Shown here: positions 26-61,668 of the stretch, piece by piece
How positions within the stretch are numbered: position 1 is the stretch's first letter
Layout of the letters: each line of letters starts with the position of its first letter
Assembly: GCA_040005235.1 (NCBI GenBank)
Contig: JBDTZG010000002.1
Span: 160,001-224,000, forward strand
Source: Acidobacteriota bacterium
Lineage (GTDB): Bacteria > Acidobacteriota > Thermoanaerobaculia > Multivoradales > UBA5704
Length of the DNA: 64,000 bases
Direction: 5' to 3'
Notes under the pieces: generated by a model
The model's database searches: none
What the model saw: only the letters and a program-made list of their open reading frames with translations
What the model was told of the DNA's origin: nothing
Translations under genes and position numbers: made by a program

Positions 26-1375
26 CTAAAGCCCCATCTCCCTCTCGACCACGGTCATCGACTCCTCCAACGCCCCCAGGAAAGTGTCCATCTGCTCCCG
101 CGAAATCACCAACGGCGGCTCGACGCGGAGGACCCGGGAGTTGATGTAGGTGCCGGAGATCAGGATCTGGCGGGCGAAGAGGTTCTTGGAGACGGCGTAG
201 CCGATCTCGTCGCTTTGGAACTCCATTCCGAGCATCAGCCCGCGGCCTCGGCCGCAGAGCATGACTTTCGGGTGCTGCCCAGCCAGCTCGTTCATCCGGC
301 CTAGCAGGTAGTCGCCTTTCTCGGCTGCCTGGTCGAGTAGGCCCTCTTCGAGCAGGACGTGGATCGTGGCGATCGCGGCGGCGCAGCAAACCGGGTTTCC
401 TCCGAAGGTGGTGGTGTGGAGGAACGGATTTTCAATGTAGCGCTCCCAGGTCTTCGGGGTGCCGACGCAGGCTCCGATCGGCATCACCCCTCCGCCGAAG
501 CCTTTGCCCAGCGCCAGCAGGTCGGGGGTGATGCCGTCGTGCTCGCAGCAGAACATCTTGCCCGTTCGGCCCATGCCGGACTGGACCTCGTCCAGGATCA
601 GCATCGTGCCGTAGCGGTCGCACAGCTCGCGCGCTCCGGGGAGGAAGCCGGGCGGGGCGACGTTGATCCCCCCTTCGCCCTGGATCGGTTCGATCACCAC
701 GCCCGCGATCCGGTCGCCCGAGAAATCGCACGTCTTCATGAACTGGGCGAGCGCGTCGAGGTCGCCGAACGGCACGTGCGACCAGTGGAGCAGCGGCAGG
801 AACGGCTCGCGGAACACGGCTTTCGAGGTGCCGCCGAGGCTGCCGAGACTCTTGCCGTGGAATCCTCCGACCATGCCGACGAAATGCTTTCGGCCGGTGG
901 TGAGCATCGCCATCTTCAAGCACCCTTCGATCGACTCGGTGCCGGAGTTGGTGAAGAAGGCGTATTGCAGATCGCCCGGCGTGATCTGGGAGACCAGGTG
1001 CGCGAGGTAGGTGCGCAGCGGGTCGATCAGCTCTTGCGAGTGGATCGCCTGGCGATCGAGCTGATCGCGCACGGCCTTCAAGACCTTCGGGTGCCGGTGG
1101 CCGACGACGTAGATGCCGAATCCGCCCAGGCAGTCGATGAACTCCTTGCCGTTGATGTCGCGGAAGACCGCCCCCTCGTCGTCCCATTCGACCGCCGTGT
1201 AATCGGTCGAGACCGACTTCCTGTACTGGAGGAACCCCGGGTTCACGTGGTCGGTCCAGTACTGCACCGATTCGCGGATCACCCGCGCGCGTTCGTCCGC
1301 GTCGAGCGTCTTCTTCGAGATCAGGTCCAGAACGTCGGCGGAGGTGTCGAGTGCGGCTTTGAGGTCTTGCGCCAT
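26..1375 (-). CDS. patA: Putrescine aminotransferase (class III PLP aminotransferase)
   Basis: 449 aa; DCLGGFG, NSGTE, FHGKSLG, EPIQGEGG, DEVQSGMGRTG, PLP lysine in ALGKGFGGG, HTTTFGGNP; N-terminal HVNPGFLQYRKSV typical of PatA/YgjG. Confidence 0.85.
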   Translation of the reverse strand: MAQDLKAALDTSADVLDLISKKTLDADERARVIRESVQYWTDHVNPGFLQYRKSVSTDYTAVEWDDEGAVFRDINGKEFIDCLGGFGIYVVGHRHPKVLKAVRDQLDRQAIHSQELIDPLRTYLAHLVSQITPGDLQYAFFTNSGTESIEGCLKMAMLTTGRKHFVGMVGGFHGKSLGSLGGTSKAVFREPFLPLLHWSHVPFGDLDALAQFMKTCDFSGDRIAGVVIEPIQGEGGINVAPPGFLPGARELCDRYGTMLILDEVQSGMGRTGKMFCCEHDGITPDLLALGKGFGGGVMPIGACVGTPKTWERYIENPFLHTTTFGGNPVCCAAAIATIHVLLEEGLLDQAAEKGDYLLGRMNELAGQHPKVMLCGRGRGLMLGMEFQSDEIGYAVSKNLFARQILISGTYINSRVLRVEPPLVISREQMDTFLGALEESMTVVEREMGL

Positions 1376-1417: not shown

Positions 1418-2563
1418 CTACCAGCGATCCCGCGGTGCCTCAGGGGTGCGCTTTTCCAGCTCTAGGGCGCCGCGGCGGTCGGCTGGGCCTGGGCGGTGAA
1501 TGCTCCGGGGCGTCGCGGGGTCAAAGACGGCCTGGCGCCCTGGGCCTTCGGTCTTCGCTTGATACATCGCCGAGTCGGCGTCCCGCAGCAGATCCTCCGG
1601 GCGGTCGTACGCGGGCGACGAGAGCGTGATGCCAATGCTCACGGAGAGTCTCACCTCTTGCCCATCGAGGTCGAAGGGAGCCTCGAAAACATGGTGGATG
1701 CGCAGCGCGAGCTTGCTGGCCTGGCCTTTCTCTTCGAGGTAATCGAGGAGCATGGCGAATTCGTCGCCTCCCATCCGGGCCACCGTATCGACCGGCCGGA
1801 GGCAGCGGTTCAGGCGTTCCGCGATTTTCCGGAGCAGCTCGTCTCCCGCCATGTGCCCCAGGTTGTCGTTGACCCGTTTGAACAGGTCGATGTCGACGAA
1901 CAAGACGGCGAACAGGGCGTCCTCTCGCCGCTGGAACCGCTTCAACGCCATGCCCAAACGGTCGAGGAAGAGGATACGGTTGGGCAGACCGGTGAGCGGA
2001 TCGTGGAGGGTGCTGTGGACCAGTCGATCGCGCGCCCCCGCAGCTTCAATGGCGATCGCGGCGATATCGGCCGCCGTCTCGATCAGGTGGATTTCGGCTT
2101 CGGTGGGAGAGCGGGGTTTGGGGTAATACATCGCCAAGGTCCCCAACACCGCACCGGCCGACGAGACGATCGGTTGCGACCAGCAGGCGCGCAGACCGTG
2201 GGCGGCGGCCAGCTCCCGGTAGTCCGCCCACAACGGGTCCCGTTGGATGTCGGTGACCACCACCCTCGTTCCTCGGAAGGCGGCGGTGCCGCAGGAGCCG
2301 ACGCTCGGTCCGATCCGGACGCCGTCGATGGCGCGACTGAAACTCTGCGGCAGGTGGGGCGCCGCCGCGGTGGCCAGTTGAGCTCCCTCTCGGTCCAGCA
2401 GGAGAATCGAACCGAACATCCCAGTCCCCGGATCCTCGATCGCCAGAGCGAGCTGGTTCAGGGTTTCCGCCAGCGGCGCGCCGCGAGCGATCCGTCGCAG
2501 CACGTCGTTTTGCCGTTCCAGCCGTTCTTTGCTCACCCGCACCTGTTCCAGGCTCTGGCGCAT
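1418..2563 (-). CDS. GAF + GGDEF diguanylate cyclase
   Basis: GAF signature (GPSVGSCGTAAF...ACWSQPI), then HDPLTGLPNR, FKRVNDNLGH and an intact GGDEF motif (RMGGDEF). Confidence 0.9.
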   Translation of the reverse strand: MRQSLEQVRVSKERLERQNDVLRRIARGAPLAETLNQLALAIEDPGTGMFGSILLLDREGAQLATAAAPHLPQSFSRAIDGVRIGPSVGSCGTAAFRGTRVVVTDIQRDPLWADYRELAAAHGLRACWSQPIVSSAGAVLGTLAMYYPKPRSPTEAEIHLIETAADIAAIAIEAAGARDRLVHSTLHDPLTGLPNRILFLDRLGMALKRFQRREDALFAVLFVDIDLFKRVNDNLGHMAGDELLRKIAERLNRCLRPVDTVARMGGDEFAMLLDYLEEKGQASKLALRIHHVFEAPFDLDGQEVRLSVSIGITLSSPAYDRPEDLLRDADSAMYQAKTEGPGRQAVFDPATPRSIHRPGPADRRGALELEKRTPEAPRDRW

Positions 2564-2611
2564 GAGCCCTATATTAACGCATAGCCACCTTTATTCGGAA
2601 ATACCTAAAAC

Positions 2612-2646
2612 AAAAGCCCGGCGGACGTGAAGCCGCCGGGCCTTTG
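2612..2646 (-). terminator. Rho-independent terminator after the outer-membrane protein gene
   Basis: Stem gcccggcgg/ccgccgggc with an 8-nt loop, followed on the minus strand by TTTTGTTTT. Confidence 0.75.
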
Positions 2647-2674
2647 GGCTGGAGCTCGAAGCGTTCGAGAATCC

Positions 2675-4810
2675 CTAGAACTGGACCTTCATGAACGCCT
2701 TGACCCGCTGCTGCGAGAAGTCGCGCTTTTCGAGGCTGTTCCAGCCGCCGGAACGGCCGGCGAAGCCGAGCGAACCGACCGGCACGTTGTGATCCTTGGA
2801 GATCTGCTCGGTCGCGACCTGCGGGACGAAACCGCCGCCGAAGTCCGGATCGAACGTGCCCTGGTTGTACTGGTATTCGAAACCGATCTCGGCGCCGGCC
2901 AGGATGTAGCGCGCCTTGAGCGAGATCTTGTTCTGGGTGTGATCGCCCGAGGCCAGCTCGTGCAGCTGATAAGCCTGGAACGCCGTGTTGCCGTCTTCGA
3001 GCGTCGTGTCGTAACGCTCCAGGGTGAGTGAGGCGTACAGGTCGTCGGTCAGCTGGTAGCCGGCTCCTATCTGGAGCAGCTTGTAGGAGAGGTCGCGGTC
3101 GTCGTCAGACAGGCTGTCGAACGGCTTCCACTGGTAGCCGATGACGCCGTTGACCGTGATCACCGGCGGGTTGCCATAGATGTCGGCCGTCGAGTTGCCC
3201 GCCGAGTAGAACCGCTTGTTGTCGGCGCACGCCTGGCCGCCGCCCGGGCAGGAACCCGCCTGGTAGGGGAGGAAGCGCGCGTCGTTCAGGCGCTTGTCGG
3301 TCTCGTCGATGAGCTTGATTTTGCCGAAGACATCGACGCCCTTGCCGATGTCCCACAGGTACTTGGCGCGGATCACGCCGATCTGGGTCTTCTTGTCCTG
3401 GAAGGGTGAGTAAGCGCTGCGGAAATTGTGGCCGACTCCCGTGTCCAGCTCGTTGACCGGATAGGCCGTCGACGTGACGTTGCGGCTCGCATCGCCGAAC
3501 GCCTGCCAGTTGGTGCTGTAGTCGATCACCGTGATCTCGGCCGCCAGATCGAGCCCGCCAAGGCTCCAGGTCGGAGCGACCGTGATGCCCTTCCAGCCGA
3601 TCACCGTCTCGGCCGCCGGCTCGTCGAAATCGGTGAGCTGGTTGTCGACGTTGATCGTCGCCACCTGCTGCATGTTGCCGCTCCAGCCGCCGAGGCCGAT
3701 CCGCGTCGGGGCGCTCGGAAACACGCCGAACGCGGAATTGTCCGGTCCGGGGAACGCATACGTCGCGTCGTGACCTTCGGTGAGCAGAACGTCGGACTCG
3801 CGGCGCGCGGCCATCAGCGCCACGTATTCGGCGCCGATGTCGAATGCCTGGATGTTGACCGAGAGGCCGTTTTCGAACGGATCGTTGAAGTCGACGCCGA
3901 ACTTCCACGATTTGTCTTCATGCCTGCCGACGGGGACCGCCGAAAAGCCCGCGAGGCCGAAGGAGCGGGCCGGGACGAGATCTTCGCCCGAGTCGGCGCG
4001 GGACCCATACATCGAGCCCGCAATGTCCAACTTCGAGCTCGGGTGGAAGCCGAACCTGCCGCCGATCACGGTATCGCGGAACCGGGTGCGGAGGTCCCGT
4101 CCTTCGTCGAAGTTGCGGTCGGTCGCTTCGACCTCCAGATTGTTGACATGGCTCGCGATCAAGCCGAAATCGAACTTCGAGCTGGGCGCGAGCTTTGCCT
4201 GGAAGCCGTAGACCGCGTCCGCGGCGTAGAGCTTGCCCGTGGTGAAATTCGATCCGGAAAAACGGCGAGGCAGCGAGATGCGGGCCGCGTCCCAGGTAAA
4301 TCTTCGGTCGGCGGCCGAGCCCTGCAACAGCAATCCCGAGGCGCTGTCGCGATCGATATAGCGGAAACGGCCGATCACGAACGGATCGAACTGCCCGAAG
4401 TCGTTCGAGCCGAGCGTCGCCGAGTCGATCCGCCGAACCGCAGGCGTGAGTGTGAGCGATAGGCCGCGCAGCCTGACGGATGAGTCGAAGCGCGAATCGC
4501 AGCCGGCGCCGGCGCAGCTTCGGGCCGGCGGATCGTCGAGCGTCGGACCGTGCTCGCCAAAGCCGCCGGAGTGGGTCCAGTAGTTCTGGGCGAAGCGGCC
4601 TTCCAGACGCCCCTTGACCTCGACCTTCTTGGACAGGCGGGCGGAGAGCAGCAGCTCGATCTCCGTGCCCTGGCCTTTGTCGCCGTTCTCGGCCCAGAGT
4701 CCCTTGGTGTAGATCGTGCCGCCGATCGTCGGTCCGTTCAGCTGGGCCGACGCAGTGTCGGCGGCCATCGCGAGTGCGAACAGCACCCCTCCGTGCGCAA
4801 AGCGATTCAT
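2675..4810 (-). CDS. Hypothetical outer-membrane (beta-barrel/porin-like) protein
   Basis: 711 aa; signal peptide ending ASA-Q; alternating amphipathic beta-strand pattern; C-terminal Phe (AFMKVQF); 10 nt downstream of the sugar ABC ATPase. Confidence 0.6.
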   Translation of the reverse strand: MNRFAHGGVLFALAMAADTASAQLNGPTIGGTIYTKGLWAENGDKGQGTEIELLLSARLSKKVEVKGRLEGRFAQNYWTHSGGFGEHGPTLDDPPARSCAGAGCDSRFDSSVRLRGLSLTLTPAVRRIDSATLGSNDFGQFDPFVIGRFRYIDRDSASGLLLQGSAADRRFTWDAARISLPRRFSGSNFTTGKLYAADAVYGFQAKLAPSSKFDFGLIASHVNNLEVEATDRNFDEGRDLRTRFRDTVIGGRFGFHPSSKLDIAGSMYGSRADSGEDLVPARSFGLAGFSAVPVGRHEDKSWKFGVDFNDPFENGLSVNIQAFDIGAEYVALMAARRESDVLLTEGHDATYAFPGPDNSAFGVFPSAPTRIGLGGWSGNMQQVATINVDNQLTDFDEPAAETVIGWKGITVAPTWSLGGLDLAAEITVIDYSTNWQAFGDASRNVTSTAYPVNELDTGVGHNFRSAYSPFQDKKTQIGVIRAKYLWDIGKGVDVFGKIKLIDETDKRLNDARFLPYQAGSCPGGGQACADNKRFYSAGNSTADIYGNPPVITVNGVIGYQWKPFDSLSDDDRDLSYKLLQIGAGYQLTDDLYASLTLERYDTTLEDGNTAFQAYQLHELASGDHTQNKISLKARYILAGAEIGFEYQYNQGTFDPDFGGGFVPQVATEQISKDHNVPVGSLGFAGRSGGWNSLEKRDFSQQRVKAFMKVQF

Positions 4811-4820
4811 GCGCTCGCGG

Positions 4821-5939
4821 TCAGGCGGTCCGGAGCCGTGTCTCGGTCTGTGCGTCGAAGACGTGAAGGCCCGCCAGGTAGATTTCGAGGTCGAGCGTGT
4901 CGCCTACCTGAGGCGCGTGGTGCGGCTCGGTCTTGGCGACTAGCAGGTCGTCGCCGATCCGACCGTGGATGATCACCTCGTGGCCGAGCGGCTCGACGAA
5001 CTCGATCACAGCCCGGATCGCCACCACCGGACCCTGCTGTCGCCGGCCGCTCTGCCCCTGATCACCGCCCGCTTCTCGGATGTTTTCGGGCCGGATGCCG
5101 AGCACCACTTTGCTCCCATCTTTGCGGGATGCGGCGCCGCGTGGCGCTTCCGGCACCGGCAGCTCGAAGCCCGAGGTCTTGAGCGTCGCGCCGTTGTCGA
5201 AGATCGTGCCCGAGAGGAAGTTCATCGGCGGCGTGCCGATGAAGCTCGCGACAAACAGGTTGGTCGGCTGCTCGTAGACCTCCAGCGGCGTCCCCACCTG
5301 CTGCAACTTGCCATCCTTCATGATGGCGATCCGATGGCCCATGGTCATCGCTTCGACTTGATCGTGGGTGACGTAGACCGTAGTGGTCTGGAGATTCCTC
5401 TGGAGCTTCGAGATCTCGGCGCGCATCTGGACCCGGAGCTTGGCGTCGAGGTTCGACAGCGGCTCGTCGAACAGGAAGACCGAGGGCTTGCGGACGATCG
5501 CCCGGCCGAGCGCCACGCGCTGGCGCTGGCCGCCGGAGAGTTGCTTCGGCTTCCGGTCGAGCAACTGGGTGATGCCGAGGGTGTTGGCCGCCTCGGAGAC
5601 CAGTTTGTCCATTTCCGGCTTCGGCGTCTTGCGGATCTTGAGCCCGAACTCCAGGTTCTCCTTGACCGTCATGTGAGGGTAGAGCGCGTAGCTCTGGAAG
5701 ACCATCGCGATGTCGCGATCTTTGGGCGGCAGCTCGTTGACCCGCCGGTCGCCGATCCGGATTTCGCCGTCGGTGACCTCTTCGAGACCCGCGATCATGC
5801 GCAGAGCCGTCGACTTTCCACAGCCCGAAGGGCCGACCAGCACCATGAATTCCTTGTCGTGGATGTCGAGGTCGAAGCTCTCGATCACCGTCACCGGTCC
5901 ATACGCCTTCTTGACTTTGTCGAAGACGACTTCCGCCAT
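4821..5939 (-). CDS. ugpC: Carbohydrate ABC transporter ATP-binding protein (MalK/UgpC/MsmX family)
   Basis: Walker A GPSGCGKS, signature LSGGQRQR, Walker B FLFDEPLSNLD, YVTHDQ, FVASFIGTPPMN, C-terminal TOBE region; exact subfamily uncertain. Confidence 0.85.
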   Translation of the reverse strand: MAEVVFDKVKKAYGPVTVIESFDLDIHDKEFMVLVGPSGCGKSTALRMIAGLEEVTDGEIRIGDRRVNELPPKDRDIAMVFQSYALYPHMTVKENLEFGLKIRKTPKPEMDKLVSEAANTLGITQLLDRKPKQLSGGQRQRVALGRAIVRKPSVFLFDEPLSNLDAKLRVQMRAEISKLQRNLQTTTVYVTHDQVEAMTMGHRIAIMKDGKLQQVGTPLEVYEQPTNLFVASFIGTPPMNFLSGTIFDNGATLKTSGFELPVPEAPRGAASRKDGSKVVLGIRPENIREAGGDQGQSGRRQQGPVVAIRAVIEFVEPLGHEVIIHGRIGDDLLVAKTEPHHAPQVGDTLDLEIYLAGLHVFDAQTETRLRTA

Positions 5940-6045
5940 GTTCCGCTAACCTCCGGTGGGCAAGAGGGTGAGAATCCGAGCCTTCCTTGTAGCAGATTCG
6001 GCGAACGAGGAACCACCCGCGCGGTCGGGGCATTTCCAGGTCGGG

Positions 6046-7440
6046 CTATTCGCTTGGGGTGATGGCCGAGATCTCAGCCGCGATCCGGCCGGCGTTCCTG
6101 ATGCAATCGGGAACCGAGACGCCGCCCAGGAAGTTGCCGGCCAGCCGCAGGCCAGGCAGCTCGCGCTCGATCTCCTCGGCCAAAGCGACGAACCGGCCGT
6201 GGCCCACTTCGTACTGCGGGATCGCCCGTGGCCAACGCCGAACGATCGCCAACTTGGGCCGACTGTATAATCCGAGCGCTCTCCCCAGGTCTTTCTGAAC
6301 CAGGCCGAGCAGGCGGTCGTCGCTCCAGATCGCGGGGTCGACGATCTCCGGGTCGGTCCGGCCCCCCAGGAACGCGGAGAGGGCGACGTGTCCCGCGGGA
6401 GCGCGGTCGGGGAAGATCGTCGAGGGGAACAGGCAGCCGAGCAGCCGCAGGCTCTCTCGCCGGGGGGCGAGGAAGCCGAAGCCGTCGAGCGGATGAACGA
6501 TCTGCTCGCGGGCCACCCCCAAGGCGACGACCGCGACAGGGGCGTAGGGGATTTCGGTGAATGTCCGGCTCTTGCCCTCGGTCGCTTCCTCCAGCAGCCG
6601 CGCCGCCACGTCGGCGGGGACCGCGAGCACTACCCGTCGGGCGCCAATCGGCCCATCGCTCGTCTCGACCCGGAAGCCCTCCCCGCTACGAACCACCGAC
6701 ATTGCGGAAACGTCCGTCCGCAAGTCGCCGATCTCCTGGGCCAAGCGCCGCGGCAGGGTCTCCAAACCGTCCCGGAAGGAGAACATCGCCCCGCCGGGCG
6801 ACGGGCCTTTCCGTTGGGCGAGAGCGCCGCGGATCAGGCTGCCGTGCTCAGTCTCGAGAGCGAAGATCTTCGGCACCGCCCAGCGCACCGCGAGCCGCTC
6901 GGGATCTCCGGCATAGATGCCCGAGACGAACGGCCCCACGGCATAATCGAGCAGCTCGTCCCCCAGCCGGCGGCGGACGAAAGCGGCGACCGTCTCGTCG
7001 GGCGCGGCCGCGATCTCAGCTGCCGAACGGCGGCGAATCCAGGGCTCGCGGAGCAGTCGGAGCTTCCCGCCGAGCGAAAACAGACGGGTGAGCAGGAGCC
7101 CCGGCGGACCGCCCGGGAGCGGTTCCAGGTGATCGCCCTTCCATAAATAGCGGCGTTTGGCGGCGGGGGAGGCGACGATTTTCTCGCGATTCGCCTCGTC
7201 ATCGAGGCCGGCGTCGCGAAGCAGCTTGGAGACCGCGGGGTGATTATCGAGCACCGTGTTCGGTCCCAGCTCGAAGCGGAAACCGGCCTCGGAATGGGTT
7301 TCGATCGCGCCGCCGACGCGCCCGCTCGCCTCGATCACCTCGACGGAAAGGCCGGCCCGTCTCAGGCGGAACGCCGCGGTCAGGCCGGAGATACCGGCGC
7401 CAATGACCAAGACGTCCAACGCTTCGGCCGATTCGGGCAT
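6046..7440 (-). CDS. hemY: Protoporphyrinogen/coproporphyrinogen oxidase, HemY type
   Basis: FAD motif IGAGISGL, ELGPNT, GIYAGDP, GFGFLAP, RWPRAIPQY, LAGNFLGGVSVPDCI. Confidence 0.9.
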   Translation of the reverse strand: MPESAEALDVLVIGAGISGLTAAFRLRRAGLSVEVIEASGRVGGAIETHSEAGFRFELGPNTVLDNHPAVSKLLRDAGLDDEANREKIVASPAAKRRYLWKGDHLEPLPGGPPGLLLTRLFSLGGKLRLLREPWIRRRSAAEIAAAPDETVAAFVRRRLGDELLDYAVGPFVSGIYAGDPERLAVRWAVPKIFALETEHGSLIRGALAQRKGPSPGGAMFSFRDGLETLPRRLAQEIGDLRTDVSAMSVVRSGEGFRVETSDGPIGARRVVLAVPADVAARLLEEATEGKSRTFTEIPYAPVAVVALGVAREQIVHPLDGFGFLAPRRESLRLLGCLFPSTIFPDRAPAGHVALSAFLGGRTDPEIVDPAIWSDDRLLGLVQKDLGRALGLYSRPKLAIVRRWPRAIPQYEVGHGRFVALAEEIERELPGLRLAGNFLGGVSVPDCIRNAGRIAAEISAITPSE

Positions 7441-21765: not shown

Positions 21766-21891
21766 AAACCCGGTGGGCAGGCGCCGGAAAGCGGCGGGCA
21801 GGTGCCGGAAACCGCCGGGCAGGCGCCGAAACCCGGTGGGCAGGTGCCGGAAACCGCCGGGCAGGCGCCGGAATCCGGTGGGCAGGAAGCG
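21766..21891. repeat. Six degenerate tandem 21-bp repeats
   Basis: Units such as aaacccggtgggcaggcgccg, gaaagcggcgggcaggtgccg and gaaaccgccgggcaggcgccg, contiguous with no spacers. Confidence 0.85.
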
Positions 21892-22070: not shown

Positions 22071-22198
22071 TGGGCAGCCGCGAAGCGGTCACGGGTCTTC
22101 ACCCACCGCTTCTGGGAACCTGCGAAGCGGTGTTCGGACTCGGCCCACCACTTTGGGGAACCTGCGAAGCGGTCTCCGGGCTCGGTCTACCACCTGGG
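22071..22198. repeat. About three degenerate tandem 42-bp repeats
   Basis: gggaacctgcgaagcggt...caccac(t/c) recurs at 42-bp spacing. Confidence 0.6.
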
Positions 22199-22350
22199 TG
22201 AAACTGCCCACCGGAGCCGGAAAGTGAACCCCAAGCGGCGGGCGTATCCCGAGATCTCGCTCGACCTCGAAGCGTTCTGGGGAAAGGTGGAGCGGCGGCT
22301 GGGGTAAGAAACCGTTGGCAGGGGGAGATGCGGCGCCGCCCGGACAATCC

Positions 22351-23802
22351 TCAACCGATCGGATCGTGAGGGCGGCGCGCCAAGTCGCGGGCGGCTTGCC
22401 GGGCAAGGGCGGCGGTGGCGGTTTCTTGGACCGCCGCGGCGAGGAACAGCTTGAGCGACACGTGCGCTTCGCGGTGGAGCTGTTCGCTCTCGAAGGTCTT
22501 GCGCATCTCGAAGACCATCGAGCGGACTTCCGCCCCCCGCCCCTCGCCCAAAAGGAGCGCCGCTTCGTCCAGACCCACGAGCGCCGCGTCGAGATGGAGA
22601 TTGAGATCCGCGAAAGCTTTTCGCACGTCGGGATAGCGGGCCAGCGCCTCGGCCGTCCTGCCGCTCGCGGCACAGATCCAGGCTTCCAGCCAATCAACGC
22701 GGAGGCGGTCCAAGTCGTTGCCCAGCTCCCCGGCCAGGGAGCGGATCTCGGGCAGCAGCGTCTCGGCCTCCGCGGGCCGGTCGAGGTGGAGCAGGTTGGT
22801 GGCGAGGTTGAACCGGAGAACGCAGCGCGGGCGCAAGTCCCCTATGGCTTCGATCAGGGGCGCGGCTTCGCGCAGGGTGGCGACCGCCGCTTCAGGGTCA
22901 CCCTTCTGCGCAAGAGTCGTCGCGCGATTGATGAGCAAGCGGCCGCGGAGCGGTCCTTCCCCTTCAAGCGCCTGGGCGCGATCATGGCGTTCGAACGCAG
23001 CAGAAAATCGGCGTTGATCCCGCGACAGTGAGGCCTCGCGATCGAGAACGCGGACTTCCGACAGCAGGCCCGGATCGTCGGCCGCGCCGCGGTCGAACCG
23101 CCCACGGGCGCGGCGCAGGGTGATCTCGGCGCCGTGGGGCTGGTTGGCCACACGGATCGCGTTGGCGAGGAAAACGCCCGCGTAGCCGCAAACACGCTCT
23201 CGCCAGCCCTCGCCACCGGGAACTTGCTCCGCCAGCTGAACCGCGAGCCGTGCCAGGTCGAGCGCCTCGCATGCAGTGGCGCTCGCCTTGACCTCGCTGA
23301 GGTGACAAAGGATCTCCACGAGAGCCCACGCGTGGAACGAGGGGAGGGTTTCGACCAGCAGGCGCCGTTCCTCGGCCGACCGGGGCTCGAGGCGCTTCCA
23401 GAGCGCGAGCGCCGGAAGTCGATCTTCCGCTCGCGGCCCGGCGGGTTCGGCGGTTCCGCCCCCCAGGCCGGAAAGGGCGGGCACCATGGCGGCGGCGGCG
23501 CGGCGCCCGGCTTCCGATCCGAGGGTCGGCCCGAGATCCGGCCCGATACCCGGCCCGCCGTCCCCCTGGGCTAGCTCGCGATCGGCCTGGACCACGCTTT
23601 CCAAGAAGCTCAACGAGCGGCGGGCGGCCGCTGCGATCCGTTCGAGCTGTGGGCGCTCCGGGGTTACCTCGCCCCGTTCGTAGTCCGAAATCTGGCTGGC
23701 GTGCATCCCTGCGCGCTCGGCCAGCTCGCCCTGGTTGAGGTTGGCGAGCGCCCGGGCGACCCTCACGATCGCCGACTCGACCGCCTGGCTCTTTTCAGCC
23801 AT
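22351..23802 (-). CDS. XRE-family HTH + TPR-repeat regulator (paralog 1), 483 aa
   Basis: RBS GGAGG before ATG 23802 (MAEKSQ); HTH LNQGELAERAGMHASQISDYERG; long TPR-like helical C-terminus. Confidence 0.85.
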   Translation of the reverse strand: MAEKSQAVESAIVRVARALANLNQGELAERAGMHASQISDYERGEVTPERPQLERIAAAARRSLSFLESVVQADRELAQGDGGPGIGPDLGPTLGSEAGRRAAAAMVPALSGLGGGTAEPAGPRAEDRLPALALWKRLEPRSAEERRLLVETLPSFHAWALVEILCHLSEVKASATACEALDLARLAVQLAEQVPGGEGWRERVCGYAGVFLANAIRVANQPHGAEITLRRARGRFDRGAADDPGLLSEVRVLDREASLSRDQRRFSAAFERHDRAQALEGEGPLRGRLLINRATTLAQKGDPEAAVATLREAAPLIEAIGDLRPRCVLRFNLATNLLHLDRPAEAETLLPEIRSLAGELGNDLDRLRVDWLEAWICAASGRTAEALARYPDVRKAFADLNLHLDAALVGLDEAALLLGEGRGAEVRSMVFEMRKTFESEQLHREAHVSLKLFLAAAVQETATAALARQAARDLARRPHDPIG

Positions 23803-23931
23803 CGTCAGCCTCCCCGAACCGCCGGCCGATGCCGCATGATCCCCAGGGCGACAAAGTTCGGCGAATCCCTTCGCCGAGCCTCGCGCGGGCCGGACGAACC
23901 GGCCCCGCCATACGCGCCCGGGAGAATCCTC

Positions 23932-24219
23932 ATGGCTCGCTTCAAGGTCTTCGTACCCCTCGTTCTCATCCTGCTGCTCATCGTACCCGCGGCGGCCTCG
24001 GCCGCCACCCTCTCCCGCGGTTCCGGCGAGGGCTGGTCCACCTGGATGCGTTCGATCTGGGCTGCGATCGGCTGTACTATTGATCCTAGCGGTTCTTGCG
24101 CACAAGAGCCAAGATCCAACATCGGCTGCGGCATCGATCCGGGCGGGCACTGCGGCGGCGCGCCCGCCCCGGCGGAGATCGGCTGCATTCTCGATCCGGG
24201 TGGGCGCTGCCGCGGTTGA
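23932..24219 (+). CDS. Secreted 95-aa peptide with three IGCx(I/L)DPxGxC repeats
   Basis: RBS GGAGA; signal peptide MARFKVFVPLVLILLLIVPAAASA; cores IGCTIDPSGSC, IGCGIDPGGHC, IGCILDPGGRC. Confidence 0.8.
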   Translation: MARFKVFVPLVLILLLIVPAAASAATLSRGSGEGWSTWMRSIWAAIGCTIDPSGSCAQEPRSNIGCGIDPGGHCGGAPAPAEIGCILDPGGRCRG

Positions 24220-24255
24220 GACCTGGGCCTTCGACCGAATCAGGTTGGGAAAGTG

Positions 24256-24323
24256 GTAGGGGCGGAGCTCGCCTCCGCCCGAGATCTGCGGCAACCGCGG
24301 TCGGAGGCAAGCTCCGCCCCTAC
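24256..24323. repeat. GTAG-type REP doublet (REPIN-like inverted repeat)
   Basis: gtaggggcggagctcgcctccg ... cggaggcaagctccgcccctac; GTAG at both outer ends; lies between convergent genes. Confidence 0.65.
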
Positions 24324-24343
24324 GACAACCCAGGCCGCGATCG

Positions 24344-25777
24344 TCAACTTTTCAGGCGGGAACGGCCCCATGCACGAGCCGCCTCTCGGGCGAGCGCCGC
24401 GGTCGCCGATTCGTGCTCCGCCGCTTCGAGGAAAAGCCGAACCGAAGCCAGCTCTTCACCTTCGAGCCCGTGCGCTGAAAACAAGGGGACCAGGTCGGCT
24501 GCCAGCCGTTTGACCCGGCCGTGGCGGCCGGCTTCGAGATGGAGGGCGGCGGCTTCCAGTCCGGCGAGCGCCGCATCCGCGCCTTGGTCCAAGCGATCGA
24601 ATTCGCCGATCAAGCTTTCGTACGCAACGATCGCCTCCCCGCTGCGTCCGGACGCTTCGGCAATCCGGCCTTCCAACCAACGCAAGCGTAGGCGGTCGAG
24701 GGCTCCGCCGAGCTGAACCGCCAGCGTGCGGACCTGGGGAAGAAGCGCTCGGGCATCCTCCACCCGTCCGAGGCCCAGATAGCTGACCACGAGGTTGAAA
24801 CGGAGGACCAGCCGTTCCCGTTGCGTCTCGGCCCGATCGACCGATGGAAGCGCCTCGATCATGTCCGAGAGCGCGGCCTCGCCCTTCCCCATGACTTCCA
24901 ACGTGGCTGCCCGATTGAGCAGCAGCCGGCCGCGCAGCTCCTTTCGCCCCTCCGCCAGCGCCCGGTCCTGCAGCGCCAGCGCCTTCGCAAACTCCCTCTG
25001 GTCGCGCCAGAACGAGGCTTCGCGGTCCAGCAAACGCACCGGATCGAGCAGGCCGGGATCCTCCTCCGCGCCGCGGGGGAACAGGTCGTTCGACCGGGCG
25101 AGAGCCTTCCGGGAGCGCTCGAAGTCATTCGCCACCCGGCAGGCGCTGCTCAGGTAGGCCCAGGCGTACCCTTCCACCCGCGCGCGCCAACCTTCACTGC
25201 CGGGAACGCGCTCGGCCACCCAGAGCGCCAGCTCGGCAAGCAGGACCGATTCCTGGGCGGAATCGCTGGCCTTGTCTTCGCTCTCGTGGCTCAGCCGCTC
25301 CACCAGCGCCCAGCTCCAGACCTCCGGGCCGTTTTCGACCACGAAGCGGCGCTCTGCCGTGCTCTTGCCGGCGAGCCGGCGCCAGAGCGCTGCGGCTTCC
25401 GCGCGCTCCTCCTCCGCGTGCCGCAGCCGGGTTTGCCCGGTCAGATGCGCTCGCAGCTCGGCCGCCCCGGCGGCGACCGCTTCGTCGATTCTCCTTCGTT
25501 CCTCAGGAGTGGGCTCGATGGGGCCGGCTTCGGTGTCGCCCGGCGCGATCACCGCCACGAACGCCAGGGCGGCGGCGAACGCCCCGTAAGGAGCGTTCAT
25601 CAGAGCGGCAAAAAAGTCCAAACGCTCCCGGGTCAGGCGGGTGTCGCCCGACTCGATCTCCGACATCGCGCTTCGCGACAGGCCGGCCGCCCGACCGAGC
25701 TGCTCCTGGCCCCAGCCCAAGGCGATGCGCAGAAGCTTTAGCGCGAGGTGAAGCGGGAGGCCGCAATGGGTAGGCAT
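24344..25777 (-). CDS. XRE-family HTH + TPR-repeat regulator (paralog 2), 477 aa
   Basis: HTH WGQEQLGRAAGLSRSAMSEIESG; shares blocks with paralog 1 (VPGxEGWR, DPGLL..VRxLDREAS..RDQR, LRFNL, LDRLR..WLE). Confidence 0.85.
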   Translation of the reverse strand: MPTHCGLPLHLALKLLRIALGWGQEQLGRAAGLSRSAMSEIESGDTRLTRERLDFFAALMNAPYGAFAAALAFVAVIAPGDTEAGPIEPTPEERRRIDEAVAAGAAELRAHLTGQTRLRHAEEERAEAAALWRRLAGKSTAERRFVVENGPEVWSWALVERLSHESEDKASDSAQESVLLAELALWVAERVPGSEGWRARVEGYAWAYLSSACRVANDFERSRKALARSNDLFPRGAEEDPGLLDPVRLLDREASFWRDQREFAKALALQDRALAEGRKELRGRLLLNRAATLEVMGKGEAALSDMIEALPSVDRAETQRERLVLRFNLVVSYLGLGRVEDARALLPQVRTLAVQLGGALDRLRLRWLEGRIAEASGRSGEAIVAYESLIGEFDRLDQGADAALAGLEAAALHLEAGRHGRVKRLAADLVPLFSAHGLEGEELASVRLFLEAAEHESATAALAREAARAWGRSRLKS

Positions 25778-25942
25778 GGGTTCATCTCTTCACTATAGGT
25801 AGGCATGGGTTTCATCGGCTCCACTAAAGGAGTAAGTTGCCGCAACCCCCTATTTGGAGGACAAGAAAGATCGAATTCCGGGAATCCGATACCGGGACGC
25901 CGAACTTTGTCGCCTCTGCGCCTGTTCTGCATCAGAAGTTGA

Positions 25943-26434
25943 ATGGATCGTAAAAAAATTGGAGCGAGGGCGGTTACCGTTCCCTGCATGGACACGCCAT
26001 CACCGCTCGGGCGGCTTGTTGGGCCACTTGGGCCCGAGAGGCTCGCGGATGCGCCGAAATCGGTGCCGGTGCATTCGCCCCATTTCCGGCTGGCGTGGCG
26101 CTCGATGGAGCTTGCCGAGCGCGCGGCCCGAATGGGGGAGCTGGCCCGAGCCGAGGAAGCGTTCCTCATCGCCGCCCATGGTTTCGGCCTTTCCGGGCTG
26201 CCTTGGCTCGAAGGGTTGGCGACGCTCGCGCTCGCCGCGGTCTACCGGCTCGAAGGCTTCGAGCTGCCGGACTGGATCGTCGATCGGCCGAGGGTTCTCG
26301 GCGTCGCGCCCGATGTCGTAGAGCTGCTGCTCGACATCCTGCTCTTGATCGACATCACCCCGCCGGATTCGCAGTTTTTGTGGGAATTGCTCGCGGACGT
26401 GAGCGCCCACCGGATGGGCTTGGAGCGCTCATGA
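25943..26434 (+). CDS. Hypothetical protein with TPR-like helical hairpin
   Basis: 163 aa (start could be a later Met); LAWRSMELAERAARMGELARAEEAF...LATLALAAVYRLEG resembles the C-terminal TPRs of the neighbouring regulators. Confidence 0.55.
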   Translation: MDRKKIGARAVTVPCMDTPSPLGRLVGPLGPERLADAPKSVPVHSPHFRLAWRSMELAERAARMGELARAEEAFLIAAHGFGLSGLPWLEGLATLALAAVYRLEGFELPDWIVDRPRVLGVAPDVVELLLDILLLIDITPPDSQFLWELLADVSAHRMGLERS

Positions 26435-26922
26435 CGGTCCGCAAGGACTCCGCGCATCTGACGTTTCCCCAGGATGCCCAACAGGTCTTCGCCCGTGCGG
26501 AGGCGGCGCGTGACCAAGGTCGACTGGAAGATGCCGCAAGGCTTTTTGGGCGCTCCGCGACAACCTGGGGCACTGAAGGCAGGGTGTTTCAAGCCATCGA
26601 CGCATACCTTGAGCTGGGGGCCATTCTTCTCCTCCAGGGCAGAGGAACTCTGCTTCCCGACCTCGCCGAAAGGCTGCTCGAACTGTCGAAGCAGAACCCG
26701 CTGCCGCCGGGCACTTACGCGAAGCTTCAGATCTTCGCGGTTCTGATGAGAAAGGCCGTCGAGATTGAGGGAGCGTACTTCAGCCTCGTTCACGAACAGC
26801 GCCGCCACCGGAAGGCGGTACGGGACTTTGAAGAGGCAAAGCCTGAGGCGCCCGATCACCGAGAGGCTCTTGGCGAACCCTCGTCGTCTTGGACGCCTGC
26901 CACCCGAAGGAGTTGCCCGTGA
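26431..26922 (+). CDS. Hypothetical protein with TPR-like segment
   Basis: ATGA overlap with the previous gene; ARAEAARDQGRLEDAARLF...AYLELGAILLLQGRG. Confidence 0.6.
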   Translation: MTVRKDSAHLTFPQDAQQVFARAEAARDQGRLEDAARLFGRSATTWGTEGRVFQAIDAYLELGAILLLQGRGTLLPDLAERLLELSKQNPLPPGTYAKLQIFAVLMRKAVEIEGAYFSLVHEQRRHRKAVRDFEEAKPEAPDHREALGEPSSSWTPATRRSCP

Positions 26923-27389
26923 AGCTAGAAGTCACCAAATTCCACCTGGTCCTTGAACTGGACCTGGTACGAGGGAACTGCCGCTGGCGCGAGCTGGCGC
27001 CTTTTCGCGAAGCGGTGTTGTCCCACTTTGCCGATGCGGAGCTTCGCGCTCACCTTGCTCTCCTGGGCGAGGCCCTGGCCGAACACCTGCTGGAGTTCGA
27101 GCAAGAAGCGGTAAGCCCCGGGGAGCCCTGGCCGAAGGTGCAGCTCCGAGCTTTGACGGTGGATCTTCGCCACTCCTGGGAAGGGCTCCAAGAGGTCGTT
27201 TCAACCGCCGAAGGGGATGACTCCCTCGCGGATCGACAGCAGTTGATTCAGATTTCCAAGGAGTTGATCCGAGGTCTTGACCGAGATCTCTCGAAAGTGG
27301 AGAGCTTCCTCGGTTCGATTCCAAAGCCCCGACCTCCGAAGAAGGGGCGCGGAAAATCTCTTGGGAAGGAATCCAAAGGAAGGCCCTGA
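26919..27389 (+). CDS. Hypothetical helical protein
   Basis: RBS AAGGAG and GTGA overlap with the previous stop; 156 aa with a basic tail. Confidence 0.55.
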   Translation: MKLEVTKFHLVLELDLVRGNCRWRELAPFREAVLSHFADAELRAHLALLGEALAEHLLEFEQEAVSPGEPWPKVQLRALTVDLRHSWEGLQEVVSTAEGDDSLADRQQLIQISKELIRGLDRDLSKVESFLGSIPKPRPPKKGRGKSLGKESKGRP

Positions 27390-37966: not shown

Positions 37967-38053
37967 GGAGGTGTGGCCGAGTGAACAATGGCAGCAAACT
38001 GTAAATCTGCCGGGCTTCGCCCTACCTAGGTTTGAATCCTAGCGCCTCCACCA
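37967..38053 (+). pseudogene. Degenerate copy of tRNA-Tyr(GTA)
   Basis: Three substitutions versus 36131-36217: D-loop GG>GA, anticodon stem GCAGA>GCAAA, T-loop TTC>TTT. Confidence 0.8.
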
Positions 38054-38315
38054 TTTTTAACTCCCGTGGATGAAGTAGTTGCAGGCCATGGTGTAGGTAT
38101 TGTTCTCTGTCCGAGGCCCCCATTGCCCGCCCGCCCAGTGAGCCGCGTGGCCTCGTTTAATTTGTGAGCCACGTGCAGCCTTTGGCCGCGCCAGAGTGCT
38201 GACTGGTTCGCTTCAGTATGAAGGCGACACCGAGTGGCGCCAAACACGGCAAGTCGGACAGAGGACAAACCCATCAAGCGTTGTGTTGCTTGGGAGCGTC
38301 CAGAATGTTGAGGCC

Positions 38316-39890
38316 CTATTCCGGGATAAATTGAAGAAACCGCACTCGGCAGTCTCCGAACAGCCTTTCTCGGTGAGACTCTTTTCCTCTCAATACTGGC
38401 AAGGCCTCAGGGAGTTTCATGAGCGCCTGGTAGAGTGCCGAAAGGTCGTCATCTTTGATGCTAGCTTTTAGGTCATCGCTAGTGACTATCGGGATGGCAC
38501 TGTCTTCCACGAGCACGCTCGGCCTGGCCATCTTGCTTACGATTATTCCCACAATCTTCGTATTGCGACCCAGTGGTGGTTGAAGGTTAAAGTTTCTTGA
38601 TAGGTTGATCTTGCTGAGCTCTAGTTCGTGCAGGCACCGCTTGTGAATGTTTAGCGCCTCACTGAATTTTTCGTCGTGTCTCTGTACTTCATAAACGGAG
38701 TCCGGTCCGAAGAACCACTTTAGGGAAATTGCCATGGCAATTGTGGAACCTCGATCGTAGACAAGAAGGTCAATGTCTCCGGCTACATACGGAGGAGTAC
38801 CTAGGCGCAAACGTTGCCGTGTAATTAGGCCTTGCGCCGAGAAGAGAGGTTCTAGTTCCTCGAGCATCAGGTGCTCCTTTATGCTATTTATTGCTTGTGA
38901 CGAAGCAGTGCTAAGGTTGTCTACAGTCAAAAGGAAATTCCGTTCGTGGTTGCTGCCATAGATTAATAGCGGAGCTGTGGCGTAGTGCCCTTCTTTGAGC
39001 AATATGAGGGGCTGGTGGATGATGTCTCGAGCTGCCTCCGTATACGTAAGGTCTTGCAGAATCGCGCTGGCTGGCCGGTATCGAAGCCCTACCCGATGTT
39101 TCATTCTGCTTAACTCGGTGTTTGCATCGAGCAACAATACTCCCGAATTGTAAGGGGATGTATTCCCTCCAAGTTCTGTACAGGCTGCCGCTAAGAAAAA
39201 TCGATGAAGTTCTGCGAGCGACTTAAGATATTTCCAGAAACTGTGAAAGTCGCCCCAGGTATATGATTCGAGTTGAAGGCCCGAAGGAAATAGGGTCGGA
39301 GCCTCCTGCGAATAGAAGTACCTAAACATGGCATCTGTCGTTGTGTAGCTAATAGTTGCGTTGCGTTCGATGCGGCATCGCTTTTCGAAGAGTGCCTCGC
39401 AAATGGGGGCGCGAGTGGAGGCATTTGAATCGACAGCGTGGACCTTGTCTCTCTCATCAGATATCTTACGAGACCACGAGGAGATGGGGTGCCTATTATT
39501 GAACTCGATGCAGTTGTCCTCGTAAGTGCAGTCGGTAAAGCCAGCGTTGGCCTCTTCAAGGCTATCCTGGAGTTTAGAGTAGATTTCAAAGGCATTCACG
39601 GCTTCTTCTGCTAGTCGAATTTCTGTCTGGCTCGAAAGACACGAAGCATTGCCACCAGGCGGACACCACTTATGGGCCTTATACACGAAGTGGCGCAGGA
39701 TATCCTGATGGGTACGGAGCGCACGGTATGGGGCGAGAGGACCTCTTGCACAATTCTCCCATATGGTTTGTTTACTTTGGGCATATCGGATTACGTGAAG
39801 AAGTGCCTCAATTCGCGGCATCCTGAATATTTCCAACTCGCGGATAACATTCTCGGCCAGGCGGCGAACAGTTTGGACTGTGTTGGACAT
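38316..39890 (-). CDS. Low-GC hypothetical protein with C-terminal PD-(D/E)xK/NERD-like region
   Basis: 524 aa, visibly AT-richer than the flanks; GDIDLLVYD...IAMAISLKW. Confidence 0.6.
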   Translation of the reverse strand: MSNTVQTVRRLAENVIRELEIFRMPRIEALLHVIRYAQSKQTIWENCARGPLAPYRALRTHQDILRHFVYKAHKWCPPGGNASCLSSQTEIRLAEEAVNAFEIYSKLQDSLEEANAGFTDCTYEDNCIEFNNRHPISSWSRKISDERDKVHAVDSNASTRAPICEALFEKRCRIERNATISYTTTDAMFRYFYSQEAPTLFPSGLQLESYTWGDFHSFWKYLKSLAELHRFFLAAACTELGGNTSPYNSGVLLLDANTELSRMKHRVGLRYRPASAILQDLTYTEAARDIIHQPLILLKEGHYATAPLLIYGSNHERNFLLTVDNLSTASSQAINSIKEHLMLEELEPLFSAQGLITRQRLRLGTPPYVAGDIDLLVYDRGSTIAMAISLKWFFGPDSVYEVQRHDEKFSEALNIHKRCLHELELSKINLSRNFNLQPPLGRNTKIVGIIVSKMARPSVLVEDSAIPIVTSDDLKASIKDDDLSALYQALMKLPEALPVLRGKESHRERLFGDCRVRFLQFIPE

Positions 39891-39960
39891 GGCCTCTCTA
39901 GTATAGTCGCAAGTGAGGGCGTTCCGCTGCGCACGATTGTTCGAGAATTGAAGGCAGATT

Positions 39961-40101
39961 CATCTCTCCGAGGAGTCGTCAAGGAGATCGAGGATGGCGA
40001 CGACGAAGCGGGACATCGGGAAGGAGATCCTCGAAGGGATTCGCCAGATCAAGCGCGGCGAGATCGGCCGCAGAACGACCGTACCTCCGTCGCTAGCAGT
40101 G
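39961..40101 (+). pseudogene. Fragment of a second higBA-like locus (toxin C-terminus + antitoxin N-terminus)
   Basis: MATTKRDIGKEILEGIRQIKRGEIGRRTTVP aligns to 41224 (MAKAKRDIGQEILEGIRQIKRGDIGRITTVP), then diverges before the HTH. Confidence 0.75.
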
Positions 40102-59840: not shown

Positions 59841-60107
59841 ATGGGCACCGGTCTCTTCCTCCTCGCCGGGTTCCTGCTCCTGGCGGTGTCGCTCCTCCTC
59901 GCTCGACCGTTCTCCCAGAACTATCCCGCCTCGACCACCTGGGCGACGGCGGTTTTCATCATGCTGTGGCTCGCGCTCACGGTGTTCAACCTGTGGGTCG
60001 GCGTGACGAAGGCCGGTTATTCGACCCGCGAGGAGCTGCCGATCCTGCTCCTTCTGTTCGGCGTGCCGGCTGCGGTGGCCTTGGTGATTAGGTGGAAGTT
60101 GCTCTAA
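59841..60107 (+). CDS. Hypothetical small membrane protein
   Basis: RBS GGAGG; three TM helices; NLWVGVTKAGYS.REELPI. Confidence 0.65.
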   Translation: MGTGLFLLAGFLLLAVSLLLARPFSQNYPASTTWATAVFIMLWLALTVFNLWVGVTKAGYSTREELPILLLLFGVPAAVALVIRWKLL

Positions 60108-60458
60108 CTAACTAAGCTAGGACGGCGGTCGCACGGGACTCCAGCGATTGATCCGTGCCCACGCCGATCTCCGGAGAACGCTTCGGAACGAACCTTGCTG
60201 GTCTTCGACTTAGGTCTTCCAGGGCAGTTTGACCAGCTGACATCACCATGGTGATATTCATACTGGCAGACGCATTGGTCGAGAGGACTTCGGCTCCCCC
60301 GTCGCCTTTGACGCAAGGGGAGAGTTGCTTTAGCACCGCGAGAGGACTTAAACTCAAGAAGATAGAGTCCGAAGTATGATCGAATCGAATCGCTATTTGC
60401 GTCTAGCACCGTTCTGGTTAGCAGCTAGGTTTGCCGGCAAGCAATGAGGTGAAGAAGG

Positions 60459-61571: not shown

Positions 61572-61590
61572 ACTAGGTCAGGAGTATTGC

Positions 61591-61651
61591 CGCCCAACTA
61601 GCCGATTAAGCGGACAGCTGGCGCTTACGTTATCGGAAATCTCGTTGGGCG
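61591..61651 (+). other. attC-like integron recombination site
   Basis: GCCCAAC ... GTTGGGC outer boxes with inner arms ccgattaagcg / cgcttacgttatcgg; between co-oriented, closely spaced ORFs. Confidence 0.5.
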
Positions 61652-61668
61652 AATCTCGTAAAACGCAC

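Follow-up and report, generated by a model that had tools for sequence, protein, structure and literature searches.

A class-restricted family of TPR regulators paired with exported-looking multi-core peptides in Acidobacteriota, most likely RRNPP-like in working

The locus described here occupies positions 22351-25777 of a 64,000-nucleotide stretch of Acidobacteriota DNA (the window; C8:160001-224000 of genome G000, an assembly of 6.22 Mb in 140 contigs that is 100% complete). In this locus, a small gene for a putative secreted peptide precursor (P0002) lies between two paralogous regulators, regA and regB, each of which combines a helix-turn-helix (HTH) domain with tetratricopeptide repeats (TPR). 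At least 26 such modules, paralogous to one another, are present in the genome, this locus included. Sequence comparisons place it in a large, class-restricted family that is most likely RRNPP-like in working, RRNPP(A) being the peptide receptors Rap, Rgg, NprR, PlcR, PrgX and AimR. The peptide/TPR-regulator family is real and, as far as literature searches reach, undescribed. Peptide and regulator genes are paired across the genome, the output domain of the regulators is swapped while the TPR domain is kept, and the multi-core precursors are paralog-specific; taken together, these findings make a peptide/sensor relationship the best explanation. The fuller statement, that this is a module family of peptide-sensing TPR regulators that works like RRNPP and arose outside Bacillota, is evenly balanced on the available comparisons. 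The genes and spacers of the locus are as follows.

22351..23802, minus strand: regA (P0001), 483 amino acids; XRE-type HTH (~8-60), low-confidence linker (~80-120) and 18 helices forming 9 TPR-like pairs (125-475)
23803..23931, 129 nucleotides: divergent control region between regA and the peptide gene, with a perfect inverted repeat inside
23932..24219, plus strand: precursor peptide gene (P0002), 95 amino acids; Sec-type leader, W motif and three cores
24220..24343, 124 nucleotides: convergent spacer from the peptide-gene stop to the regB stop
24344..25777, minus strand: regB (P0003), 477 amino acids; XRE HTH and 9-TPR domain as in regA

A first-pass annotation of this DNA had described two HTH-TPR paralogs of ~480 amino acids, a 95-residue gene with a Sec leader between them and a divergent gap of 129 nucleotides, and all of these positions were confirmed. 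The arrangement that it recognized, in which HTH-TPR regulators adjoin a small, exported-looking propeptide, is likewise real, and its interpretation as a whole is partly supported. The two regulators share 48% identity over 328 amino acids (E = 3e-77), and regA, which is divergent from the peptide gene, has GGAGG 7 nucleotides 5' of its ATG. The N-terminal XRE HTH exceeds the Pfam gathering score in both proteins. In P0001, HTH_3 (38.6 bits, cut-off 23), HTH_31 (34.5, cut-off 27) and TPR_12 (38.9, cut-off 30.1) all score above cut-off, while in P0003 this is true of HTH_31 (33.3) and HTH_3 (29.8), with TPR_12 at 25.2 bits, under its cut-off of 30.1.

The translation of P0002 begins with a predicted Sec-type leader (residues 1-24, nucleotides 23932-24003) in which positive charge at the N-terminus gives way to a hydrophobic run and then to A-S-A ahead of residue 25. 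Between the leader and three cores of the form G-C-x2-D-P-x-G-x-C lies a stretch rich in Trp (W35/W38/W43). The cores span G47-C56, G65-C74 and G84-C93 (nucleotides 24070-24099, 24124-24153 and 24181-24210), and the protein ends 2 residues past the last Cys. Searches of Pfam, NCBIfam, PADLOC and PHROGs gave zero matches to P0002. Its relatives in the genome were collected by a regular-expression scan and then with a hidden Markov model built from ten paralogs (E <= 0.1), which yielded 26 small open reading frames (ORFs), all of them containing a leader, a W..L..LWA motif and one to four G-x3-[D/E]-P-x-G units. As judged from these members, the conserved family feature is the G-x3-D-P-x-G unit following W..L..LWA, and the Cys loop marks a subfamily only. 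The loop on which the first-pass annotation had centered is indeed present in the three P0002 cores, but it is not defining, as two Cys are found in only about half of the own-genome paralogs. The remainder keep only G-x3-DP-x-G and have a hydrophobic residue and usually Pro where the two Cys would be.

Where Cys occurs, it tends to occur twice. Counted by eye at core positions 2 and 10, 29 own-genome cores have both Cys, 3 have the first only, 0 the second only and 25 neither; the cores are related to one another, so these counts do not amount to a statistical test. The joint gain or loss of both residues fits a disulfide, which suggests that the C-x7-C core is a disulfide loop. The cores also carry a paralog-specific signature. 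Among the 36 of 44 peptides with at least two cores, identity at the six variable core positions is 0.585 within a precursor (114 pairs) vs 0.322 between precursors (5557 pairs), and the within-precursor likeness was reached by 0 of 2000 permutations. Each paralog thus has its own core 'flavour', with P0002 itself at the heterogeneous end, its three cores all being different.

A profile of the Cys-type peptides matches 1281 clusters at E <= 1e-3, and 390 at E <= 1e-10, among 1.84 billion representatives. The short global representatives (n = 156) have 3-4 cores in 139 cases, an N-terminal hydrophobic run in 152, a Trp no more than 12 residues before the first core in 137 and an end 2-4 residues past the last core in 130, with linkers between cores of mostly 7-12 residues. 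These data bear on the possibility that the small ORF is a chance frame, rather than a real gene, in the 65-70% G+C DNA between two regulators. High-GC DNA is rich in long spurious frames, and 81 ORFs of at least 40 amino acids were found in 10 kb. Such an origin is nevertheless vanishingly improbable for P0002 and effectively refuted by the number of matching clusters, by the conservation of leader, W motif, cores and C-terminal end, by the AAGGAG sites conserved in paralogs and by the presence of the gene at the same position in relatives.

Two further global representatives, P0094 (783 amino acids) and P0100 (731 amino acids), are secreted-looking proteins in which ~40 tandem G-x3-DPNG-[KR] units lie between N- and C-terminal domains. 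They could be giant multi-unit precursors, or structural repeat proteins derived from the same unit. An RTX-like calcium repeat was considered for the G-x-G-x-D-P-N-G-K sequence of these long proteins and rejected, as the Gly/Asp register differs by eye from the RTX consensus.

The TPR paralogs of the genome were gathered with phmmer using P0001 and P0003 as queries (E < 1e-5), giving 47 segments. The genomic association between peptide and HTH-TPR genes that had been anticipated is borne out: 25 of the 26 peptide ORFs have a TPR paralog no more than 1.5 kb away, and for 38 of the 47 TPR segments there is a peptide nearby. The regulator neighbourhoods make up 3.0% of the genome, so that chance alone would place 0.78 peptides in them (binomial P ~2e-37). 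The modules arose by duplication, so the 25 pairings are not independent events; what counts is that the pairing has outlived divergence down to 30-40% identity. Nine TPR genes appeared to be orphans, three of which have a single-core peptide ORF nearby and a fourth of which is 2.2 kb from one. One module (C107:4052-5818) looks decayed, with a TPR gene split over two frames and a 154-residue peptide ORF that extends over part of the TPR frame and no longer shows the core pattern beyond its second unit.

The modules are of two types. Type A, to which the present locus belongs, comprises 14 loci with HTH-TPR regulators. In each of the 14, the P0003-like regB lies downstream of the peptide gene, converges with it and is full length; the P0001-like regA, upstream and divergent, contributes 10 members to the tree set and at several loci is a ~260-residue form ending after the first TPRs. 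In a regulator tree of 24 rows, based on the 245 N-terminal residues that they have in common, the regA and regB labels require 2 changes, compared with a mean of 8.0 when the labels are shuffled, and 0 of 500 shuffles gave a value as low. Furthermore, four pairs of loci are sisters in both the regA and the regB halves of the tree. The clustering of the labels and the four sister pairs indicate that whole modules were duplicated. In type B (11 genes), the TPR domain of type A is preceded by another N-terminal domain, and the peptide gene shares the strand of the regulator gene and lies upstream of it.

The type B N-terminal domain resembles that of an anti-sigma factor. Pfam recognizes only TPRs in ten type B proteins, leaving the N-terminal end without any family at E <= 0.01. 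A profile of this end (80 positions, ten proteins) matches ChrR (2q1z_B) at E = 3.5e-5 and DdvA more weakly, and its H..H-x4-C-x2-C motif (H5, H30, C35 and C38) is invariant in 20 sequences. The gene order on contig C103 is sigma / ASD-TPR, sigma / peptide, sigma / ASD-TPR, where ASD denotes the anti-sigma domain and the three sigma genes are of the ECF (extracytoplasmic function) type. This array (L030, C103:10000-19000, positions 1797-6842) lies on one strand, both sigma/ASD-TPR pairs overlap by 4 nucleotides, and the peptide is Cys-free. A sigma gene adjoins 2 of the 11 type B genes, at C103 only, and the other type B genes are without an adjacent sigma gene. The near-invariant type A motifs around N214/R217, Q263/R264, R368/W371, D405 and E445 recur in the type B consensus. 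Conserved TPR Asn residues, which the first-pass annotation had noted in LRFNL and LxNRA, are found in the 44-sequence alignment, with an uneven outcome for the two: N332 (LRFNL) is conserved in 34 of 44 sequences, N292 (LxNRA) in only 19 of 44, and the best conserved, N214 (43 of 44), had not been listed. The strongest argument that TPR domain and peptide may cooperate directly is the constancy of this one sensor-like domain beside a peptide gene despite the exchange of its output domain.

Structure prediction is consistent with a peptide-binding role. The AlphaFold2 model of P0001, built with the 44-sequence alignment, has a mean pLDDT of 88.2 and shows a five-helix HTH, a low-confidence linker at ~80-120 and 18 helices. 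For the type B model (pLDDT 89.4), a fold search other than Foldseek returned scores of 24.2 for LGN, 23.1 for Pins, 23.0 for APPBP2, 20.1 for Rap and 19.3 for NprR. These scores are tied or nearly so, and they suggest a TPR solenoid of the peptide-binding type with no specific RRNPP signal; the match lists are filled by the TPR part, and the N-terminal domains are thus outside their reach. The models are consistent with a receptor that is a soluble cytoplasmic protein with a peptide-binding solenoid of the TPR type. No conserved transmembrane segment was found in the regulators, in which the maximal 19-residue hydropathy is at most about 2.0 at a position that is not conserved. A periplasmic TPR domain behind a membrane helix was considered and rejected as a conserved feature: a post-HTH hydrophobic stretch (1.6-2.0) is seen in P0003 and some homologs, where it contains charged residues, and is absent from P0001 and many others. 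A complex prediction of P0003 123-477 with the pro-region 25-95 scored 0.01 against a mark of 0.32, was run without controls and speaks neither for nor against binding.

Outside the genome, a search with P0002 recovered relatives in 18 of 24 genomes from its own family, the richest having 23 matches. Of 16 genomes from the other families of the order, 1 gave a match, and that locus (L027) showed neither peptide nor regulator. HTH-TPR genes flank the peptide at 18 of 19 loci fetched from relatives. P0002 orthologs have 3, 4 or 5 cores (L009-L011), and the order X3-X2-X1 / regB / peptide / regA, in which X1-X3 are the small genes beside regB described below, is preserved at two loci from metagenome-assembled genomes (L064 and L065). 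A regulator profile at E <= 1e-15 recovered 11 of 301 genomes sampled across the phylum (five candidates scored per genome), all from the same class. The closest relatives are metagenome-assembled genomes of Thermoanaerobaculia, with one of Holophagales, and the own genome contains 4 Omp85 matches, which fit a diderm envelope; the earlier description of the host as a diderm was therefore sound. Two loci with distant TPR homologs carry a DPxG ORF, that of L063 with a leader and W motif and that of L061 leaderless. The L061 ORF (positions 886-1050, plus strand, G025:C12) encodes 32-45 amino acids, ends in two identical G-x3-DP-x-G units and closely precedes the gene of a distant TPR homolog, in a genome from another family of the order; it is a single unverified case.

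These observations suggest a working model. First, the 95-residue precursor would be exported by Sec, and the leader cleaved after A-S-A. In the oxidizing periplasm, each C-x7-C core would then close into a disulfide loop around the D-P-x-G turn, and cleavage in the 7-12-residue linkers would release three related small peptides. Next, the peptides would build up outside the cell and be taken up again; the genome contains one Opp-type binding protein. In the cytoplasm, they are proposed to bind the concave groove of the 9-TPR domain of regB, and perhaps of regA. Binding would alter the occupancy of palindromic operators by the XRE HTH in both divergent control regions. Finally, regA and the peptide gene would be subject to feedback, and X1-X3 would be controlled as well.

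Several points weigh against this model and the peptide-sensor reading behind it. Export, processing, uptake, binding and regulatory effect are all proposed steps. At ~70 amino acids, an uncut mature product would be a large cargo for an Opp-type importer, and any disulfide loop would undergo reduction in the cytoplasm; for quorum sensing, at least 26 parallel channels per genome are many. Among distant TPR homologs in other families of the class, a DPxG ORF lies within 1.5 kb at 2 of 21 loci; with short flanks and five candidates scored per genome, this count does not demonstrate absence at the others. Assignment to RRNPP finds no support at the sequence level. Pfam at E <= 1 gives generic HTH_x and TPR_x families, with TPR_MalT below cut-off, and RRNPP chains are missing from the best 60 of 208 PDB profile matches. 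The fold similarity is generic to TPR solenoids, with Rap and NprR no better than the eukaryotic LGN and APPBP2 and all four tied to within about 2 Z. When all ORFs lying up to 6 kb from any of the 26 peptides were compared with one another, TPR genes, peptides and X1-X3 were the only recurrent families, and no protease, exporter, importer or modifying-enzyme family recurs in the modules.

Adjacency and co-duplication would be shown equally by a regulator and its target gene. It is conceivable that the cue for the HTH-TPR and anti-sigma-TPR proteins is a different one and that they switch on a secreted effector peptide, which might serve in antimicrobial activity or competition, as a metal- or calcium-binding loop, or as an envelope or matrix component. 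Divergent promoters with palindromes are also expected of a local regulator and target, the modules are without an importer or protease gene, and the secreted relatives of 730-780 amino acids with their ~40 G-x3-DPNG-[KR] units look structural or effector-like rather than like pheromone precursors. What such a scheme leaves unexplained is that the same TPR domain, with its conserved residues, stays with a peptide gene under either an HTH or an anti-sigma output, that nearly every one of the 47 TPR paralogs has a peptide of its own, and that cores are homogenized within a precursor and different between paralogs. In addition, the immunity, modification or export genes typical of bacteriocin clusters and of those for ribosomally synthesized and post-translationally modified peptides do not recur. 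An effector peptide under the control of a sensor for another cue is the main alternative, though the less likely reading.

In a further possibility, the TPR domain would bind the unexported precursor or a leaderless form inside the cell, with the regulator reporting export flux. TPR chaperones of type III secretion similarly free a co-activator once their substrate has been exported. The regulators are predicted to be cytoplasmic, the leaderless L061 ORF with its two G-x3-DP-x-G units lies beside a TPR homolog, and re-import across two membranes would be unnecessary. However, Sec substrates normally leave quickly, a flux sensor needs neither 26 diverged copies nor multi-core precursors, an N-terminal hydrophobic run is present in 152 of the 156 global representatives, and L061 is a single unverified small ORF. 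An intracellular partner switch of this kind is considered improbable, and other readings share the little probability that is left.

Peptide sensing is therefore retained as the preferred interpretation, and its most far-reaching form can be put forward tentatively, with the balance somewhat against it. Thermoanaerobaculia would have independently evolved a family of cytoplasmic peptide receptors in which one 9-TPR sensor of D-P-x-G turn peptides drives either an XRE HTH or an anti-sigma domain with an ECF sigma factor in its grip, through ~25-30 channels per genome. Such a family would be without precedent, both as an RRNPP-like system of a diderm phylum and as a cytoplasmic anti-sigma factor gated by a peptide. 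If this is true, the sensed D-P-x-G peptides would often be disulfide-stapled loops, several of which are released from each Sec-exported multi-core precursor, and genetically encoded peptide signalling would extend to a major, poorly cultured soil phylum. The family would also offer a natural set of possibly orthogonal peptide/regulator pairs, and would show one sensor domain gating a repressor-type HTH in some members and an anti-sigma factor in others. Were the peptides effectors instead, the G-x3-DP-x-G / C-x7-C peptides would still constitute an undescribed, abundant secreted family with dedicated regulators.

The control regions of the locus contain candidate sites for such regulation. 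A perfect 8+8 inverted repeat with a 4-nucleotide spacer (23858-23877), located in the 129-nucleotide divergent region, is a candidate operator; the paralogous locus C79 has retained it. Four other modules have A+T-rich palindromes of the ACCC-N8-GGGT type at the corresponding place upstream of the peptide gene, and most peptide genes have a strong AAGGAG ribosome site. In the convergent spacer, a G+C-rich stem of 8 bp with a 5-nucleotide loop and no T run (24250-24270) was seen by eye, was not reported by the terminator scan and may act as a bidirectional terminator. A 19-nucleotide direct repeat, also found by eye (25769-25787 / 25799-25817), has one copy spanning the regB start codon and the other 30 nucleotides upstream; it could be the product of a small duplication or serve as a binding site for a regulator. 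Between regB and X1, an imperfect palindrome (25870-25890) was listed as a terminator-like stem. The consensus scan for promoters and terminators was uninformative, returning 0 sigma-70-like promoters and 4 terminator-like sites vs 3.1 expected. Beyond regB the locus continues as follows.

25778..25942, 165 nucleotides: divergent region between regB and X1, with a direct repeat and an imperfect palindrome
25943-26434, plus strand: X1, small, no Pfam family
about 26431-26922, plus strand: X2, small, no Pfam family
26889-27389, plus strand: X3, small, no Pfam family, start uncertain

The X1, X2 and X3 proteins had no Pfam match at E <= 1e-3. By tblastn in the own genome, matches were located for X2 at 8 further places (7 adjoining a module), for X3 at 4 and for X1 at 3. 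The genes are divergent from regB and recur beside it in other modules and in orthologous loci, and this recurrence makes them candidates for, and the likeliest members of, the regulated output. X2 may be a short TPR-like protein, a weak suggestion that comes from generic TPR-like Atlas clusters at low recognition value; X3 had no usable match in the Atlas. The sole SBP_bac_5 gene (Opp-type binding protein) of the genome is at C8:64502-65602, ~4 kb from the peptide/TPR module at C8:56.5-60.8 kb, a proximity that may be coincidence.

Wider neighbours of the locus include PrmA, a class IV aminotransferase, a PilT-like ATPase and RecX on one side, and NfeD and flotillin on the other. PADLOC and PHROGs scans of the locus gave HTH matches alone, with no sign of a defence system or prophage. 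The 650-nucleotide gap between recX and the regA end contains two tandem DNA arrays, one with a 21-nucleotide period and 5.6 copies (21766-21886; also readable as 42 or 63 nucleotides) and one with a 42-nucleotide period and 3 copies (22080-22207), both of which yield long spurious ORFs with repeated peptide motifs on either strand. The G+C content is 0.51 at window positions 38001-40000 and 0.54-0.57 at 60001-64000, compared with ~0.64 on average over the window, and these stretches may be foreign or otherwise atypical DNA. The stretch is present in four DNA runs from one soil/root/rhizosphere study, two of which are possibly the source of the assembly; no RNA run is listed.

Among known systems, RRNPP(A) is closest, through the HTH-9TPR architecture of NprR, AloR and AimR and through the placement of a small, predicted secreted-propeptide gene beside the receptor gene. 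RRNPP(A) receptors belong to Bacillota, whereas the present family is found in Acidobacteriota, a diderm phylum. The peptide families are unrelated: the RRNPP signal is a linear unmodified oligopeptide, whereas the family here is built on the G-x3-DP-x-G unit, often as a C-x7-C loop, with two Cys 7 apart in the P0002 cores and about half of the paralogs Cys-free. Part of the present family has an anti-sigma output, which was not seen described for RRNPP. Specific sequence or profile homology was not seen, and LGN and APPBP2 fit the fold at least as well; membership of RRNPP is not claimed, the resemblance being one of architecture. With LGN/Pins and APPBP2, eukaryotic TPR solenoids around extended peptides or an RxxGP degron, the fold alone is held in common (11-18% identity), and no evolutionary link is implied.

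In their accessible portions, PMC10075063, PMC12700828 and PMC9765709 present RRNPP(A) as belonging to Bacillota and to the mobile elements (phages and plasmids) of these bacteria; according to PMC12700828, rooting of the RRNPP family would benefit from an outgroup identified by remote structural homology. The literature found on RRNPP(A), on Acidobacteria and Thermoanaerobaculia and on diderm peptide signalling does not, in the available text, describe the present family and describes RRNPP(A) for Bacillota only, in keeping with the earlier view that such a system had not been described in a diderm; the supplements of PMC10075063 and PMC9765709 might list non-Bacillota candidates. The multi-core design had been viewed as unlike RRNPP, a view that the text available in PMC11343458 and PMC9765709 overturns, as tandemly duplicated pheromone propeptides are in print there for Rap, AimR, PlcR and NprR. 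The design is consequently a likeness, not a difference. As in tandem propeptides of the Phr/AimP type, there are several mature units per precursor and the copy number varies between relatives (3-5 here); those units, as far as the same sources go, are linear 5-7-mers freed by extracellular proteolysis, whereas the present unit is a 10-residue turn motif that is Cys-bracketed in half of the paralogs. The arrangement of two paralogous HTH-repeat regulators at one peptide gene, one of them divergent from it, also recalls Rgg2/Rgg3-SHP.

SHPs are short leaderless hydrophobic peptides, whereas P0002 has a Sec-type leader and three cores. According to the portions available of PMC3150281, the two paralogous receptors of Streptococcus pyogenes, Rgg2 and Rgg3, act in opposition on shared peptides, and any assignment of opposing roles to regA and regB by this analogy is pure conjecture. 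Type B, in turn, is comparable to the ChrR-type zinc-binding anti-sigma (ZAS/ASD) proteins, both in the match of its N-terminal domain to ChrR and in the apparent translational coupling of the C103 pairs to ECF sigma genes. The ZAS zinc motif is spaced H-x3-C-x2-C, compared with H-x4-C-x2-C in type B. TPRs are known near sigma factors, as the accessible text of PMC7826278 places them in ECF42 extensions and in the FecR-like anti-sigma of ECF267, an arrangement that is not that of type B. In place of the cupin or membrane-anchored domain of the ZAS/ASD proteins, type B would present a soluble 9-TPR sensor behind its anti-sigma domain.

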